Part shown: positions 49,547-53,507 of the stretch, piece by piece
Layout: each line of letters starts with the position of its first letter
Position numbering within the stretch: the stretch's first letter is position 1
Source of the DNA: Escherichia coli
Lineage (GTDB): Bacteria > Pseudomonadota > Gammaproteobacteria > Enterobacterales > Enterobacteriaceae
Strand: one strand, 5' to 3'
Assembly (NCBI RefSeq): GCF_003334785.1
Contig: NZ_QOWV01000002.1
Length of the DNA: 64,000 nt
The notes under the pieces: generated by a model
What the model was told of the DNA's origin: nothing
Seen by the model: the letters and a program-made list of their open reading frames with translations, nothing else
Database searches by the model: none
Made by a program: the position numbers and the translations under genes

Positions 49547-50293
49547 ATGGAACAAGCGCATACCCAGCTGATTGCCCAACTGAACGAGCGTATTTTAGCG
49601 GCGGATAACACGCCGCTTTATATTAAGTTTGCCGAAACGGTAAAAAATGCCGTGCGCAGCGGGGTGCTGGAGCATGGCAATATTTTGCCCGGTGAGCGTG
49701 ATTTAAGTCAGTTAACCGGCGTTTCGCGCATTACGGTGCGCAAGGCGATGCAGGCGCTGGAAGAAGAGGGTGTGGTGACGCGTTCGCGCGGTTACGGCAC
49801 GCAGATCAACAACATCTTCGAATACTCGTTGAAAGAAGCGCGAGGTTTTTCTCAGCAGGTGGTATTGCGCGGGAAAAAGCCCGATACGCTATGGGTTAAC
49901 AAGCGTGTCGTGAAATGTCCCGAAGAAGTCGCGCAGCAGCTGGCGGTCGAAGCAGGAAGTGATGTCTTTTTGCTTAAGCGTATTCGCTATGTCGATGAAG
50001 ATGCGGTATCGATTGAGGAATCGTGGGTTCCGGCGCATTTAATTCATGATGTTGATGCCATCGGGATTTCACTTTATGACTATTTCCGCAGCCAGCACAT
50101 TTACCCACAACGTACGCGTTCCCGCGTTAGCGCCCGGATGCCGGATGCCGAGTTTCAGTCACATATTCAGTTAGATAGCAAAATACCGGTGCTGGTGATC
50201 AAGCAAGTGGCGCTTGACCAACAGCAACGGCCTATTGAGTACAGCATTAGCCACTGTCGCAGCGATCTATACGTTTTTGTGTGCGAGGAGTAG
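49547..50293 (+). CDS. yegW: GntR/HutC-family transcriptional regulator
   Basis: 248-aa ORF with N-terminal GntR-type HTH (…LPGERDLSQLTGVSRITVRKAMQALEEEGVV). Confidence 0.88.
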   Translation: MEQAHTQLIAQLNERILAADNTPLYIKFAETVKNAVRSGVLEHGNILPGERDLSQLTGVSRITVRKAMQALEEEGVVTRSRGYGTQINNIFEYSLKEARGFSQQVVLRGKKPDTLWVNKRVVKCPEEVAQQLAVEAGSDVFLLKRIRYVDEDAVSIEESWVPAHLIHDVDAIGISLYDYFRSQHIYPQRTRSRVSARMPDAEFQSHIQLDSKIPVLVIKQVALDQQQRPIEYSISHCRSDLYVFVCEE

Positions 50294-51232
50294 TTCCTCG
50301 CGCGTTGGCGCACAATCACCGCCCCGATGCCCGACAACCCACGACGCCACTGCATTGCCCAGTAATACGGCATCCGCCAGTGGCAGACCAGAGGCCAGCC
50401 CGGCAAGTACGCCACCGGCATGACTGTCGCCCGCCCCAATGGTGTCGACAACTTGCGTTGGAAATGCCGGAATGCAGCCAGAAGCGTCGTTGCTGAAATA
50501 CCATGCGCCTTCTTTATCGAGACGAACGATCAACGGCGCGGCAAATTTCTCCTGCCATTGCTTGCCAAGTGTTGTTATCTCTGCGGATAAAGCAAAACGT
50601 TCGGCGGCAATCTCAGCCTCTTGACGATTGAGCGACACTAAAGGTCGACAGGCCATGATCCGCGCCAGTAATGCATCCGGGATATCGCCAATACGTGGGC
50701 CAAAATCGATAAACGGCGTCACGTCTTGCAGCTCTTCCAGCCATTCCACTAACAATTCGCCGCAGGGCGAGGCCAGTTGATAACCGGAAAAATAGAGCAG
50801 GCTGCCAGGCGCAACGGTTAATCGCGCCAGCCACTGGCGATTCCACTGATTTTCAACACCGCTGAATGACATAAAAGTGCGTTCGCCATCCGGCTCAACC
50901 AGCGCCAGACACCAGCCGTTATCACCTTCGGCGTTATCGATCAGGCTGATTAAGCCCTCTTTTGCCATCCGGTTGCGAATAATCTCCGCCCACACGCCCT
51001 GACCGAGCGGCAAGGCATTACCCGCTTCGATGCCGAGGCGCTTTAACGCCACGGCAATATTCAGTGCGCAGCCGCCAACGTTAACGCTCTGCTGTTTCAG
51101 TTCGATATCGCACCCACGCCAGGGGAGGGCATAAGCGTCGGCGATCACGTCAATGACCGCCGCGCCGACGACCATCACCGACTGACGCGTGGTTAATTCA
51201 GGCAGCAGCGTGTGTAATCGAGCGCCGCTCAT
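50267..51232 (-). CDS. yegV: PfkB-family carbohydrate/nucleoside kinase
   Basis: 321-aa ORF; ribokinase-like C-terminal motif (DTIGAGDSHAGG); 4-nt overlap with yegU; 3' end overlaps convergent yegW by 27 nt. Confidence 0.88.
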   Translation of the reverse strand: MSGARLHTLLPELTTRQSVMVVGAAVIDVIADAYALPWRGCDIELKQQSVNVGGCALNIAVALKRLGIEAGNALPLGQGVWAEIIRNRMAKEGLISLIDNAEGDNGWCLALVEPDGERTFMSFSGVENQWNRQWLARLTVAPGSLLYFSGYQLASPCGELLVEWLEELQDVTPFIDFGPRIGDIPDALLARIMACRPLVSLNRQEAEIAAERFALSAEITTLGKQWQEKFAAPLIVRLDKEGAWYFSNDASGCIPAFPTQVVDTIGAGDSHAGGVLAGLASGLPLADAVLLGNAVASWVVGHRGGDCAPTREELLLAHKNV

Positions 51233-52233
51233 ACCGCCTCCCGTTGTTGACGATATTTCGCCAGCGCTGTGGCATAGCGGTTGAAATCAAGCTGATTTAC
51301 CGCATCCAGTTCCGCCTTTAACGCAGGATCGATAGCGTTAACGCCATGCAACGCGCCGCAAATTGCCGTCGCCATAGCACCGATGGTGTCTGTGTCGCCG
51401 CCAAGGTTAGCGCACAGGACGGCGCAGCGATTCGGGTCGGTTTGTGCCAGTTCAACCAGCGCAATGGCGCACGGAACGGACTCAATAGTGCTGGTACCTG
51501 CGCCAACGACCTGGTAAAGCTGTTCGCTGGCGGATTCGGTGCCGTCGGCATTGCGCACAATTTTCAGCGCAATCTCCAGCCGCGCCGCCAGTGAGGCGCT
51601 GAACGTAGTGATGCGTTTTTGCTGTGCATGTCGCGCAATTGAAGGCAGGGAATCAACAATCGCTGACCAGCTTTCTCCGTCAATGGCACGAGAAATCGCC
51701 CATGCGATGACTACCGCGCCTGCAACCGCCAGATCGGATTTATGGGTCGGGCTGGACGCCAGCGCTACATCATCAATAAAGGAATCAACATCACGCGCCG
51801 GAAGCAAACAACCTAATGGCGAGACGCGCATCGCTGCGCCGTTGGTCACGCCGTTGTTTTCCAGTTCAGCAACGGGTTTACCGTCGCGAATGGCGTTAAG
51901 CGCAATCTTCGAGGTCGGACCTAGTACGTTTTTGTTAAAGGCGTCGAAACGCAGCGCCCAGTCGAGAATATTACGCCCAATCAGATCCGGATCGATCTTG
52001 CCTTCACGTTCCAGTAACGCATCCGCCAGACACAGCGCCATCGAGGTATCGTCGGTGAATTCGGCGCGGTTAAAATAACAGGCCGCGTTATTCTCCTTTG
52101 GTCCAGGAAGAAAACGGTCAATCCAGCCAAAGTGTGCTTTAACGCGGCTGCGTGGCCAAAGCTCGGAGGGCATCCCCATCGCATCCCCTAACGCCTGCCC
52201 ATAAAGAGCACCGAGAATACGTTCTGTTTTCAT
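51229..52233 (-). CDS. yegU: ADP-ribosylglycohydrolase-family protein
   Basis: 334-aa ORF (MKTERILGALYGQALGDAMGMPSE...), typical ARH-family N-terminus; 4-nt overlaps with yegT and yegV. Confidence 0.88.
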   Translation of the reverse strand: MKTERILGALYGQALGDAMGMPSELWPRSRVKAHFGWIDRFLPGPKENNAACYFNRAEFTDDTSMALCLADALLEREGKIDPDLIGRNILDWALRFDAFNKNVLGPTSKIALNAIRDGKPVAELENNGVTNGAAMRVSPLGCLLPARDVDSFIDDVALASSPTHKSDLAVAGAVVIAWAISRAIDGESWSAIVDSLPSIARHAQQKRITTFSASLAARLEIALKIVRNADGTESASEQLYQVVGAGTSTIESVPCAIALVELAQTDPNRCAVLCANLGGDTDTIGAMATAICGALHGVNAIDPALKAELDAVNQLDFNRYATALAKYRQQREAV

Positions 52234-53507
52234 TTAACTTCCCCTTGTGTCAACGCAATATCGCGATCATCGACCTTGATAGCCGTAATTTCGTTGTCGG
52301 ATTCGCGGAAAAAAATCATGAACAGCACGGCGATAATGGCAATCATCACCGCGCCGAAAGTCCACATCCCGGACCAGTTGAAAGTCAGTCCGTTTACCGG
52401 TTCCTGATAAGCGAACATCTTTTCCATCATCACACCGCCAAGACGATAGCCGAGCAAACTGCCGAAGCCCTGGCAGCAGAGCGTGATCAGCCCCTGCGCA
52501 GCGGTACGCATATGCACGGGGGCTTTTTTATCGACATAGATGTAAGCGGTAACGTAGTAAAAATCGTAACTTACGCCGTGAAGCAAAATACCGAGGAACA
52601 GTAACGCGTAGGTGAAATATTCATCCGCACTACCGTAAATAAAGAAGCCATAGCGGATCGCAGCGGTGACCAGACCAAGCAATAATACCTTTTTGATACC
52701 AAAGCGTTTAGTGAAAAACGGCAATGCCAGCATAAAGAAGATTTCAGAGAACTGGCCGAGCGTCATCCAGCCGGTGGCGTTTTTCATGCCAACTTCGGTC
52801 AGATAACCGTTGGCAAAGATGTAATAGAACGCTAGTGGCATCGCAAACAGGAATGAACAGAAGAAAAAGACGAGGAAGTTTTTATCGCGCAGCAGGATCA
52901 GCGCATCCAGGCCGAGCATGACTTTAATATCCATTTTGCCGGTGCTTTTTGGTGGCGTGTCGGGCAGGAAAAACGCAAACACACCGAGCAGAGCAGAACT
53001 TCCGGCGGTAATCAGCAGCGGGATGTTAGTCGGTGAGATATCGGCATACCCCAGTATTTGCGGCAAGAAACCACATGCCAGACCGGAGGCAATCCAGCCG
53101 ATAGTGCCCATCACACGAATGCGCGGGAAATCACGCTCAACATCCGGCACGTTGGCAAAAGCGATGCTGTTAGTCAGCGCAATGGTCGGCATATAGGTTA
53201 GCGAGTAGGCCAGCAGTAACGGGAAGAACCCGGCAAAAGTGGTCTGTTGCGCAGCGAAATACATCAGCAGCGCGCCTGCGAACATCAATACCGCCAGCAC
53301 TTTCTGCGCCGAGAAAAAGCGGTCAGTGATGGAGCCAACCAGAATTGGCGACAGGATCGCCGCAATGGCGGTACAGGCATACGACCAGCCAATTTCTCCG
53401 GCACTAAAACCGCTTTTACTTAACCACAACCACAATGGCACAAACCACGCGCCCCAGATAAACCATTCAACAAACATCATGAACGACAGCTTTGCTGTTG
53501 TTTTCAT
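52230..53507 (-). CDS. yegT: MFS nucleoside:H+ symporter-family transporter
   Basis: 425-aa polytopic membrane ORF, first gene of the yegTUV unit. Confidence 0.88.
   Translation of the reverse strand: MKTTAKLSFMMFVEWFIWGAWFVPLWLWLSKSGFSAGEIGWSYACTAIAAILSPILVGSITDRFFSAQKVLAVLMFAGALLMYFAAQQTTFAGFFPLLLAYSLTYMPTIALTNSIAFANVPDVERDFPRIRVMGTIGWIASGLACGFLPQILGYADISPTNIPLLITAGSSALLGVFAFFLPDTPPKSTGKMDIKVMLGLDALILLRDKNFLVFFFCSFLFAMPLAFYYIFANGYLTEVGMKNATGWMTLGQFSEIFFMLALPFFTKRFGIKKVLLLGLVTAAIRYGFFIYGSADEYFTYALLFLGILLHGVSYDFYYVTAYIYVDKKAPVHMRTAAQGLITLCCQGFGSLLGYRLGGVMMEKMFAYQEPVNGLTFNWSGMWTFGAVMIAIIAVLFMIFFRESDNEITAIKVDDRDIALTQGEVK

Follow-up and report, generated by a model that had tools for sequence, protein, structure and literature searches.

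The yegTUV operon and its neighbouring regulator gene yegW (ggaR) raise a simple question: which compound do these genes allow Escherichia coli to take up and process? The operon is one of those remaining in E. coli with a known regulator and no known substrate, and we analysed it in a 64,000-nucleotide stretch of E. coli DNA (RefSeq assembly GCF_003334785.1, contig NZ_QOWV01000002.1; hereafter the window). A preliminary description of this DNA, made from the sequence alone, had called the genes a complete but unassigned salvage or catabolic module, and that wording is accurate: no substrate was found in the searchable literature up to mid-2026, where full-text searches returned only the paper on the repressor GgaR, the structure of YegT and negative transport data. 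Comparative genomics and residue-level alignments indicate that yegTUV-yegW is very probably a module for the uptake and cleavage of a non-canonical riboside. The more specific version, in which the riboside is phosphorylated first and the phosphorylated intermediate is then cleaved, has in our estimate an even chance of being correct. These results sharpen the hypothesis (a non-canonical riboside, possibly of the pyridine type, a kinase followed by a glycosidase of the ADP-ribosylglycohydrolase (ARH) family, a phosphorylated inducer and a GGTAT operator) and do not solve it.

On the minus strand, yegT (52230-53507, 425 aa) is the first gene of the operon and is followed by yegU (51229-52233, 334 aa) and yegV (50267-51232, 321 aa), while yegW (49547-50293, 248 aa) is encoded on the plus strand. 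Consecutive operon genes overlap by 4 nt (52230-52233 for yegT/yegU, 51229-51232 for yegU/yegV), and yegV and yegW share 27 nt where their 3′ coding ends meet (50267-50293). The four open reading frames (ORFs) and all three overlaps had been given in the preliminary description, and the ORF table reproduces every coordinate exactly. Its title placed yegW on the divergent side, which is wrong: yegW lies downstream of yegV and is convergent with it, as the body of that description said, and the divergent neighbour of yegT is fbaB. The locus lies between thiMD-yegX and fbaB-gatYZABCD, and RefSeq gives the stretch the same four gene names. Chance is no explanation for this arrangement, as 5420 of 5426 complete E. 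coli genomes contain the 5-kb stretch, and the same 27-nt overlap was seen in the loci of 19 Enterobacteriaceae species when these were compared. The yegV-yegW pair has also been listed among overlapping convergent transcripts, as an “excludon” (PMC12288877). In short, this is a core E. coli locus, annotated and already studied, with its biochemistry unsolved.

Publications that precede this analysis cover co-transcription, the repressor (GgaR), the effect of ADP-glucose on it in vitro, a phenotype in glycogen content and the crystal structure of YegT. Northern blotting with yegT and yegV probes detects yegTUV as one 3.3-kb mRNA (Saito et al. 2024; PMC10819704), so the single operon that the preliminary description proposed, with lack of co-transcription named as an observation that would refute it, had already been demonstrated. 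GgaR gives a single genomic peak, at the fbaB/yegT spacer, by chromatin immunoprecipitation on microarrays (ChIP-chip), binds a 190-bp fbaB/yegT probe in electrophoretic mobility shift assays (EMSA), and has a weaker second site inside yegT (probe-5, ORF nt 571-869); deletion of yegW raises yegTUV mRNA about 30-fold and leaves fbaB unaffected, in a study that includes Northern blots and quantitative reverse-transcription PCR (PMC10819704). These data bear out YegW as the dedicated regulator of the operon. The same authors report no known function for any yegTUV gene (PMC10819704).

What the three gene products do together is best approached through the relatives of YegU. An initial homologue search returned near-identical enterobacterial proteins only, and the diversity came from a search of 1.8 billion representatives, which gave 6972 YegU relatives, 234 of them at E <= 1e-30. 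Among the top 150 relatives, 11 are fused to a PfkB kinase domain, and both domain orders occur (ARH N-terminal and PfkB C-terminal in four, the reverse in seven). One of the closest representatives (P0161, 692 aa) carries two PF03747 domains in a tandem ARH-ARH arrangement. A genome scan yielded 79 YegU-like loci from Enterobacterales, Vibrio, Aeromonas, Chromobacterium, Bacilli, Lactobacillaceae, many Clostridia, Veillonellaceae, Sutterellaceae, Spirochaetales, Actinobacteria and Coriobacteriales, in which neighbouring families were assigned by seed searches. A PfkB gene lies within 3.5 kb of the YegU-like gene in 68 of the 79, in several gene orders and across several phyla, with Enterobacterales, Vibrio, Aeromonas, Chromobacterium, Bacilli, Lactobacillaceae, Clostridia, Veillonellaceae, Sutterellaceae and Coriobacteriales represented, and a GntR/UTRA regulator gene is nearby in 51.

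The transporter is the variable part of these loci. An NHS transporter gene is present near the YegU-like gene in 28 of the 79 loci, an NCS1 gene in 18 and a PnuC-family gene in 17, all from Clostridia (TIGR01528 at 148 bits against a cut-off of 42, together with PF04973); one locus has NHS and NCS1 genes together, and the seed searches identified none of the three families in the remaining 17. In the PnuC loci, the YegV-like kinase is the sole kinase. Units of the order ARH-NCS1-PfkB and ARH-PfkB-NCS1 are also found on metagenomic contigs, and genes of a further transporter type precede a PfkB-ARH fusion gene (an ECF T-component and two ECF ATPases; L097, 1424-5719) and a stand-alone ARH gene of a spirochaete (an ECF ATPase; L073, 4300-6484). 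The families exchanged in this way are carriers of ribosides, nucleobases and vitamin-like compounds, and the swapping of unrelated transporters around a constant enzyme pair is strong evidence that the pair serves one pathway with one imported small solute.

YegT itself scores 654.9 bits against the NCBIfam nucleoside permease model TIGR00889 (cut-off 446.1), which makes it a member of the NHS family within the MFS. The ribose-contacting residues of NupG, Arg136, Thr140 and Glu264, are identical in YegT, and the base-contacting residues differ (PMC8042404). The 3.1 Å crystal structure of YegT has a GxxxD protonation motif with Asp315, and isothermal titration calorimetry gave no measurable binding of uridine, adenosine, cytidine or guanosine (PMC11979927); likewise, YegT did not transport uridine, cytidine, xanthosine or gemcitabine (PMC11241209). 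We predict that YegT is an H+ symporter importing a non-canonical riboside. Of the earlier proposal that a (modified) nucleoside is imported, the riboside importer stands as a prediction, and the word nucleoside needs qualification, given these negative results with canonical nucleosides.

YegV is a PfkB kinase (PF00294, E 9.6e-57) in which Gly53-Gly54, the NxxE motif (Asn202...Glu205) and the DTxGAGD motif carrying the catalytic Asp (Asp263-Asp269) are conserved in 66-67 of 67 sequences. We aligned the 66 PfkB kinases that neighbour YegU-like genes, using E. coli RbsK as the reference. The equivalents of RbsK Asp16, Asn46 and Asp255 are kept in YegV, the first two invariantly so among the 66 neighbours. 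The position of RbsK Asn14 is hydrophobic (V/M/F/I) throughout, that of Lys43 is Cys in 63 of the 66, and that of Glu143 is Ala in E. coli and other enterobacteria and variable elsewhere. None of the curated NCBIfam equivalogs names YegU or YegV, all of them being far under cut-off. Ribokinase was rejected on two models (TIGR02152, 82.1 bits against 299.65; NF008353, 60.6 against 341) and the pseudouridine kinase PsuK on another (NF007355, 19.6 against 540). YegV is predicted to be a riboside 5′-kinase that traps the imported substrate.

YegU matches the ADP_ribosyl_GH family (PF03747, E 2.5e-66, residues 8-302), and its AlphaFold model (predicted local distance difference test score of 97) has the all-helical ARH fold. 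The nearest solved structure is the uncharacterised MJ1187 (template modelling scores of 0.81/0.90), followed by a Thermus relative and by ARH3 and DraG (∼0.77); sequence and fold searches of the PDB for relatives that might name YegU or YegV returned only ARH3, DraG, Tri1 and the uncharacterised MJ1187 and TTHA proteins. Glu24 (in GDAMGMPSE), Thr60-Asp61-Asp62-Thr63 and Gly278-Gly279-Asp280-Thr281-Asp282-Thr283 of YegU align with ARH3 Glu41, Thr76-Asp77-Asp78, Asp314, Asp316 and Thr317, an alignment with MJ1187 likewise has the catalytic Glu and the T-D-D (60-62) and D-T-D-T (280-283) ligands all present, and the GNG loop is kept. Among 25 relatives of 32-71% identity, Asp61 and Asp282 are invariant, and Asp62, Asp280 and Thr283 are at least 90% conserved. 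DraG and ARH1 use adenine contacts other than those of ARH3, and the comparison made for YegU concerns the ARH3 clamp only: in the alignment, Phe143 and Tyr149 are replaced by Asn127 and Val129, beside a 3-residue deletion. The role of these two ARH3 residues is to stack on the adenine, and in every characterised ARH substrate the released ribose is esterified with phosphate at O5′′ and placed through its cis-2′′,3′′-diol on the two metals (PMC7050489). As named enzymes, DraG (TIGR02662, 79.5 bits against a cut-off of 337) and Tri1 (NF041672, 69 against 490) were both rejected for YegU. YegU is predicted to be a di-metal glycosidase freeing ribose-5-phosphate from a phosphorylated riboside. 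Judged by their residues, YegU and YegV both look catalytically competent, and neither falls in a characterised isofunctional group.

YegW combines an N-terminal winged helix-turn-helix domain of the GntR family (PF00392, E 7e-16) with a C-terminal UTRA domain (PF07702, E 1e-35), which places it in the HutC subfamily, with NagR/YvoA as its best solved relative. The family assignments in the preliminary description (an ADP-ribosylglycohydrolase-family enzyme for YegU, a PfkB kinase for YegV, a GntR regulator for YegW, a nucleoside transporter for YegT) hold throughout. In NagR, phosphate is coordinated by Thr90, Arg133, Arg135, Ser165, Ile166 and Tyr167 (PMC4333415), and the aligned residues in YegW are Ser102, Arg145, Arg147 and Ser175-Leu176-Tyr177. 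Across 52 neighbouring GntR proteins, Ser or Thr is present at the first of these positions in 51, the two arginines in 47 and 36, respectively, and S-L-Y in all 52. The conserved clamp suggests that the inducer is phosphorylated and specific to the pathway. A riboside-5′-phosphate would be a sensible signal of this kind; ribose-5-phosphate, a central metabolite, would not.

The conserved kinase-hydrolase pairing, the exchange of transporters, the fusions, the intact catalytic motifs and the operator motif are all observed here. What we infer is which enzyme acts first, what kind of ligand induces the operon and to which class the substrate belongs, as follows. YegT would bring in the riboside by H+ symport, YegV would phosphorylate its 5′-OH and so trap it in the cell, and YegU would cut the bond at C1′ of the phosphorylated intermediate, giving ribose-5-phosphate and a free aglycone. 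YegW, bound to tandem GGTAT half-sites over the yegT -10 element and to a weaker site within yegT, would keep the operon off until released by a phosphorylated ligand, most plausibly the product of YegV, with ADP-glucose acting as an in-vitro mimic.

Several lines of evidence favour placing the kinase first. Pnu transporters, being facilitators, depend on the solute they bring in becoming phosphorylated, which argues that the YegV-like kinase next to them acts on the riboside itself. YegV lacks the anomeric-side contacts of ribokinase and keeps the residues for catalysis and for binding the 2′,3′-diol; the 5′′-phosphorylated substrates of ARH enzymes match a YegU that retains their machinery without the adenine site of the ARH3 type; and the phosphate clamp of YegW calls for a phosphorylated, pathway-specific inducer. 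The same logic operates twice in E. coli, where FrlD acts before FrlB on fructoselysine and PsuK before PsuG on pseudouridine. The sequence of import, hydrolysis and phosphorylation set out in the preliminary description is therefore the less supported order, the evidence favouring phosphorylation of the riboside first and cleavage second.

That sequence is nonetheless the strongest rival. In it, YegU would free ribose and the aglycone from the riboside, and YegV would be a ribokinase paralogue making ribose-5-phosphate. We consider it rather unlikely, the best placed of the alternatives all the same. The fusions and co-localisation fit this order as well as the other, the T-U-V gene order mirrors its steps, and ribokinase is still the best match of YegV in both NCBIfam and the PDB. 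Against this, the YegV score falls far below the ribokinase cut-off, the RbsK Asn14 and Lys43 equivalents are missing family-wide, E. coli has RbsK already, and the only phosphorylated signal left for the YegW clamp would be ribose-5-phosphate. PnuC-type facilitators, which need the imported solute itself to be phosphorylated, and the 5′′-phosphorylated substrates of all known ARH enzymes also speak against it.

The ribokinase resemblance of YegV is one of several points that weigh against the pathway proposed here, and against its kinase-first order in particular. The equivalent of RbsK Glu143 is Glu in ∼30% of YegV-like proteins, and the roles of Asn14, Lys43 and Glu143 as anomeric-side contacts are taken from the published RbsK structure. 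Ordinary nucleosides are beta-linked, unlike the bonds cut by ARH1 and ARH3. Both of these enzymes are selective for alpha-1′′ linkages (PMC7050489). Ribose-utilisation loci of Bacteroidetes pair ARH genes with true ribokinases acting on free ribose, and YegU orthologues accompanied by a GntR gene, without a kinase or transporter gene, occur in Edwardsiella, Serratia marcescens and S. bockelmannii, so that YegU-type enzymes do exist with no adjacent kinase. In four such loci (L040, L042, L043 and L051, ∼7900-9800), the YegU-like protein has 62-65% identity (64-65% in Edwardsiella and S. marcescens), the GntR gene is convergent, and phoPQ, purB and hflD lie next to the pair; here YegU may be either a remnant or an enzyme working on an endogenous substrate. 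ADP, which contains a riboside 5′-phosphate, left GgaR bound in EMSA (PMC10819704). The pathway offers no direct account of how the yegW mutant comes by its glycogen and growth phenotypes, and every biochemical step assigned to YegT, YegU and YegV is itself inferred.

Those phenotypes are at the centre of the second rival, put forward by Saito et al. 2024, in which YegTUV act on ADP-glucose or its precursors and GgaR senses ADP-glucose to set glycogen storage. In gel shifts, 10-100 μM ADP-glucose frees GgaR from the fbaB/yegT probe and neither ADP nor glucose does, the yegW deletion has 2-3 times higher glycogen and grows poorly on glucose minimal medium, and a yegV deletion is listed among low-glycogen mutants, as cited in the same paper (PMC10819704). 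The link is nevertheless “somewhat ambiguous” to its own authors, high glucose induces the operon only ∼3-fold as against ∼30-fold in the yegW deletion, and the gel shift had two control compounds, ADP and glucose, without ADP-ribose, a nucleoside monophosphate or other nucleotide sugars (PMC10819704). Comparative data count against it as well: in other bacteria the enzyme pair occurs beside PnuC, NCS1 and ECF transporters, none of them nucleotide-sugar carriers, a link to glg genes was seen in none of the 79 loci, and ARH enzymes cut at ribose C1′′, where ADP-glucose offers no useful bond. We regard this explanation as improbable. ADP-glucose may instead mimic, in vitro, the phosphorylated ribosyl ligand of GgaR. 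AMP is the main inhibitor of GlgC, and in our own view the glycogen and growth phenotypes may come from derepressed enzymes hitting endogenous nucleotides such as AMP.

Least probable is that YegU is a true de-ADP-ribosylating enzyme (on protein, nucleic acid or a small molecule) with YegT and YegV accessory or unrelated, for although YegU has complete ARH catalytic and di-metal motifs in a confident ARH fold, the reported effector ADP-glucose resembles ADP-ribose, and a regulator resembling the ADP-ribose-responsive NrtR type lies upstream in one Leuconostoc locus, YegU scores far under the DraG and Tri1 cut-offs and lacks the ARH3 adenine clamp, no ADP-ribosyltransferase partner was found in any locus, and the PfkB association, small-solute importers and kinase fusions would play no role.

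Within the riboside pathway favoured here, which riboside is meant? When the 704 ORFs neighbouring the YegU-like genes were clustered to look for aglycone-degrading genes, only transporters and regulators recurred; ureide genes appeared in a few loci and isochorismatase-like genes in one or two, too rarely to identify a substrate. Upstream of YegU-like operons without a GntR gene, in 17 loci, we found no adjacent cobalamin, NAD+, thiamine pyrophosphate (TPP), preQ1 or other Rfam riboswitch, which argues against a link to cobamides (alpha-ribazole) or thiamine, and no conserved leader was evident there. Two TPP elements near YegU-like loci serve neighbouring thiamine genes (L011, 12315-12405, before a TenA gene; L078, 16135-16235, in Lactobacillales). 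In Leuconostoc holzapfelii (L078, 5160-11258), ARH-NCS1-PfkB is immediately preceded, on the same strand, by genes for an NrtR-like regulator and a NiaP-like MFS transporter and by nadC, with a gap of 14 nt between nadC and the ARH gene, and no other locus examined has an NAD-metabolism neighbourhood. On another contig (L096, 1-2522), an isochorismatase-family gene with weak PncA/nicotinamidase likeness lies upstream of an ARH-PfkB fusion gene and overlaps it by 4 nt, and purine-nucleoside phosphorylase genes adjoin the pair in four loci. With the PnuC, NCS1 and ECF neighbours, these associations make a pyridine riboside, of the nicotinamide or nicotinate type, the leading, if weakly supported, candidate. 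The fuller proposal, that YegU-type enzymes form a widespread ARH branch that does not strip ADP-ribose from macromolecules and consists of riboside-5′-phosphate glycosidases working with YegV-type kinases on a vitamin-like riboside, most suggestively a pyridine riboside, is a tentative one that we think doubtful as it stands. In two Vibrio loci (L035, 10047-11324; L036, 9893-11239), an extra MFS gene of the SfMCT monocarboxylate type lies between the PfkB and GntR genes, and its product may carry a carboxylate aglycone out of or into the cell.

The closest parallel among known systems is the E. coli pseudouridine operon psuT-psuK-psuG (yeiM-yeiC-yeiN), where a transporter, a PfkB 5′-kinase and a glycosidase yield ribose-5-phosphate and the base, as proposed for yegTUV, and where kinase-glycosidase fusions occur in other organisms, as they do for the YegU/YegV type. 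The likeness is one of logic and not of membership, given the YegV score on the PsuK model; PsuG has the IndA/PsuG fold whereas YegU is an ARH protein, the transporters belong to the CNT and NHS families, respectively, and the psu substrate is known. YegU shares the fold, the binuclear metal site and the catalytic Glu of ARH1, ARH3, DraG and Tri1, whose C1′′ chemistry on 5′′-phosphorylated ribose is that proposed for YegU, but it lies in a transporter-kinase operon, is not paired with an ADP-ribosyltransferase, and has MJ1187 as its nearest solved relative. RbsK and Bacteroides rusK systems likewise combine a PfkB kinase, a ribosyl-bond hydrolase (a nucleoside hydrolase or ARH) and a transporter to harvest ribose; their kinase acts on free ribose, whereas YegV lacks RbsK Asn14 and Lys43 and is under the ribokinase cut-off. 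Nicotinamide riboside salvage by PnuC and NadR resembles the Clostridia loci in coupling facilitated riboside uptake to trapping by a kinase, but the E. coli module has an NHS symporter and a PfkB kinase in place of NadR or Nrk, and the phosphate would be cleaved rather than adenylylated. The xapAB-xapR system, like other nucleoside operons with a single-target regulator, also joins an NHS transporter, a catabolic enzyme and a local regulator, with XapA being a phosphorylase and XapR of the LysR type. Finally, NagR shares the GntR and UTRA domains and the phosphate clamp of YegW, whereas the NagR/DasR operator is palindromic and that of YegW would consist of tandem direct GGTAT repeats.

The kinase-hydrolase pair is common in gut and environmental bacteria, and assigning it would add a route for scavenging nucleosides or cofactors and would establish small-molecule metabolism, as opposed to the removal of ADP-ribose from protein, as a possible task of an ARH-fold enzyme. 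If the proposal of a vitamin-like riboside cleaved by YegU-type glycosidases is correct, small-molecule catabolism would be a first for the ARH fold, yegTUV would cease to be an orphan operon, and a gene might be supplied for the orphan nicotinamide mononucleotide nucleosidase activity. Assignment would also clarify why derepression alters glycogen, growth and pressure resistance, and would test ADP-glucose as the true GgaR signal against ADP-glucose as an analogue. On the strength of the comparative data, the search can be confined to non-canonical ribosides and their 5′-phosphates, which makes the question directly testable.

How YegW recognises its DNA can be approached through the fbaB-yegT spacer. 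Saito et al. 2024 give no GgaR motif (PMC10819704). The promoter scan found a single promoter-like site in the spacer, with a -35 element TTCACC and a -10 element TATTAT ending at 53562, and it falls together with the predicted YegW operator (53528-53591, minus strand), which was recognised by its direct repeats. There, AAAGGTATTTAAAAGGTATTATTAAGTGGTATTGTCATCGCGTACCTTACATTACCTGTCAT (window 53584-53523, minus strand) contains three GGTAT(T) half-sites in direct orientation, with spacings of 11 and 13 nt, and after them inverted GTACC and TACC. This block lies 21-74 nt upstream of the yegT ATG, within the 190-bp probe bound by GgaR, and no other part of the spacer is as well conserved, from Escherichia, Citrobacter, Enterobacter, Providencia, Hafnia and Rahnella to Vibrio, with the pattern AAAGGTATTTAAAAGGTATTAT..TGGTAT..GCGTACC..TTACCTGTCAT. 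The motif GGTATT-N5-GGTATT has one exact match in the window, at the yegT promoter, and the only other match with at most one mismatch is an operator-like site, GGTATCAAAAAGGTATT (52684-52700, minus strand; one mismatch), at nt 808-824 of the yegT ORF, inside probe-5 of Saito et al. Seven matches occur in the window at up to two mismatches, a number that 14 of 100 shuffles reach and that is not above chance, so support for the operator rests on the location of the two best matches. We propose that the GGTAT repeats are the YegW operator and account for both mapped repressor sites. Repression would come about by occlusion of the -10/+1 region, possibly with cooperative binding or looping to the intragenic site.

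A search for the same operator in distant lineages was negative, and other candidate operators are seen there. Lineage-specific candidates for the GntR regulators lie upstream of the ARH gene (L044-L046 and L002; L061-L079). In Aeromonas, Chromobacterium and Serratia oryzae they are ACTGGAC direct repeats with a spacing of 11 nt, and the Firmicutes candidates are palindromes, AACTTATTATAATAAGT in Clostridia and AACTyrTACG...CGTAyGAGTT in Bacilli.

At the other end of the operon, a generic terminator scan between yegV and yegW gave nothing convincing. RNA folding points to a candidate intrinsic yegTUV terminator at 50179-50230 (minus strand), ∼40-90 nt beyond the yegV stop and antisense within yegW, where a hairpin is followed by UAUUUUG. 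Across 19 Enterobacteriaceae sequences the hairpin is preserved, for the most part by G-U changes, and three pairs show double changes; this is weak evidence, as the hairpin region is coding. The distance from promoter to terminator, ∼3.38 kb, fits the 3.3-kb Northern band (PMC10819704). We speculate that derepressed yegTUV transcription, in crossing at least the last 27 nt of yegW antisense, could cut repressor synthesis and sharpen induction. Within yegW itself, ∼50 nt into the gene, a terminator-like stem-loop (AGCGGCGGATAACACGCCGCT followed by TTATATT; 49597-49617, plus strand) is probably a chance match.

The fbaB-yegT spacer also contains a 17-nt inverted repeat (53687-53725, minus strand), which holds the counterpart of a site mapped in K-12. 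That site, CTGGCCCGCCTTTTGCG, is a weak sigma-54 site by chromatin immunoprecipitation sequencing, 183 nt upstream of yegT (PMC4591121). Its counterpart in the window (53701-53717, minus strand) reads CTGGCCCGCCTTTAGCG, with TAGC for TTGC, a T-to-A change in the -12 element. A CRP site from systematic evolution of ligands by exponential enrichment has likewise been reported for the K-12 spacer. Beyond yegW, on the thiMD side of the locus, a TPP riboswitch is annotated at 46896-46992 (plus strand), upstream of thiM-thiD, in an identical RefSeq genome.

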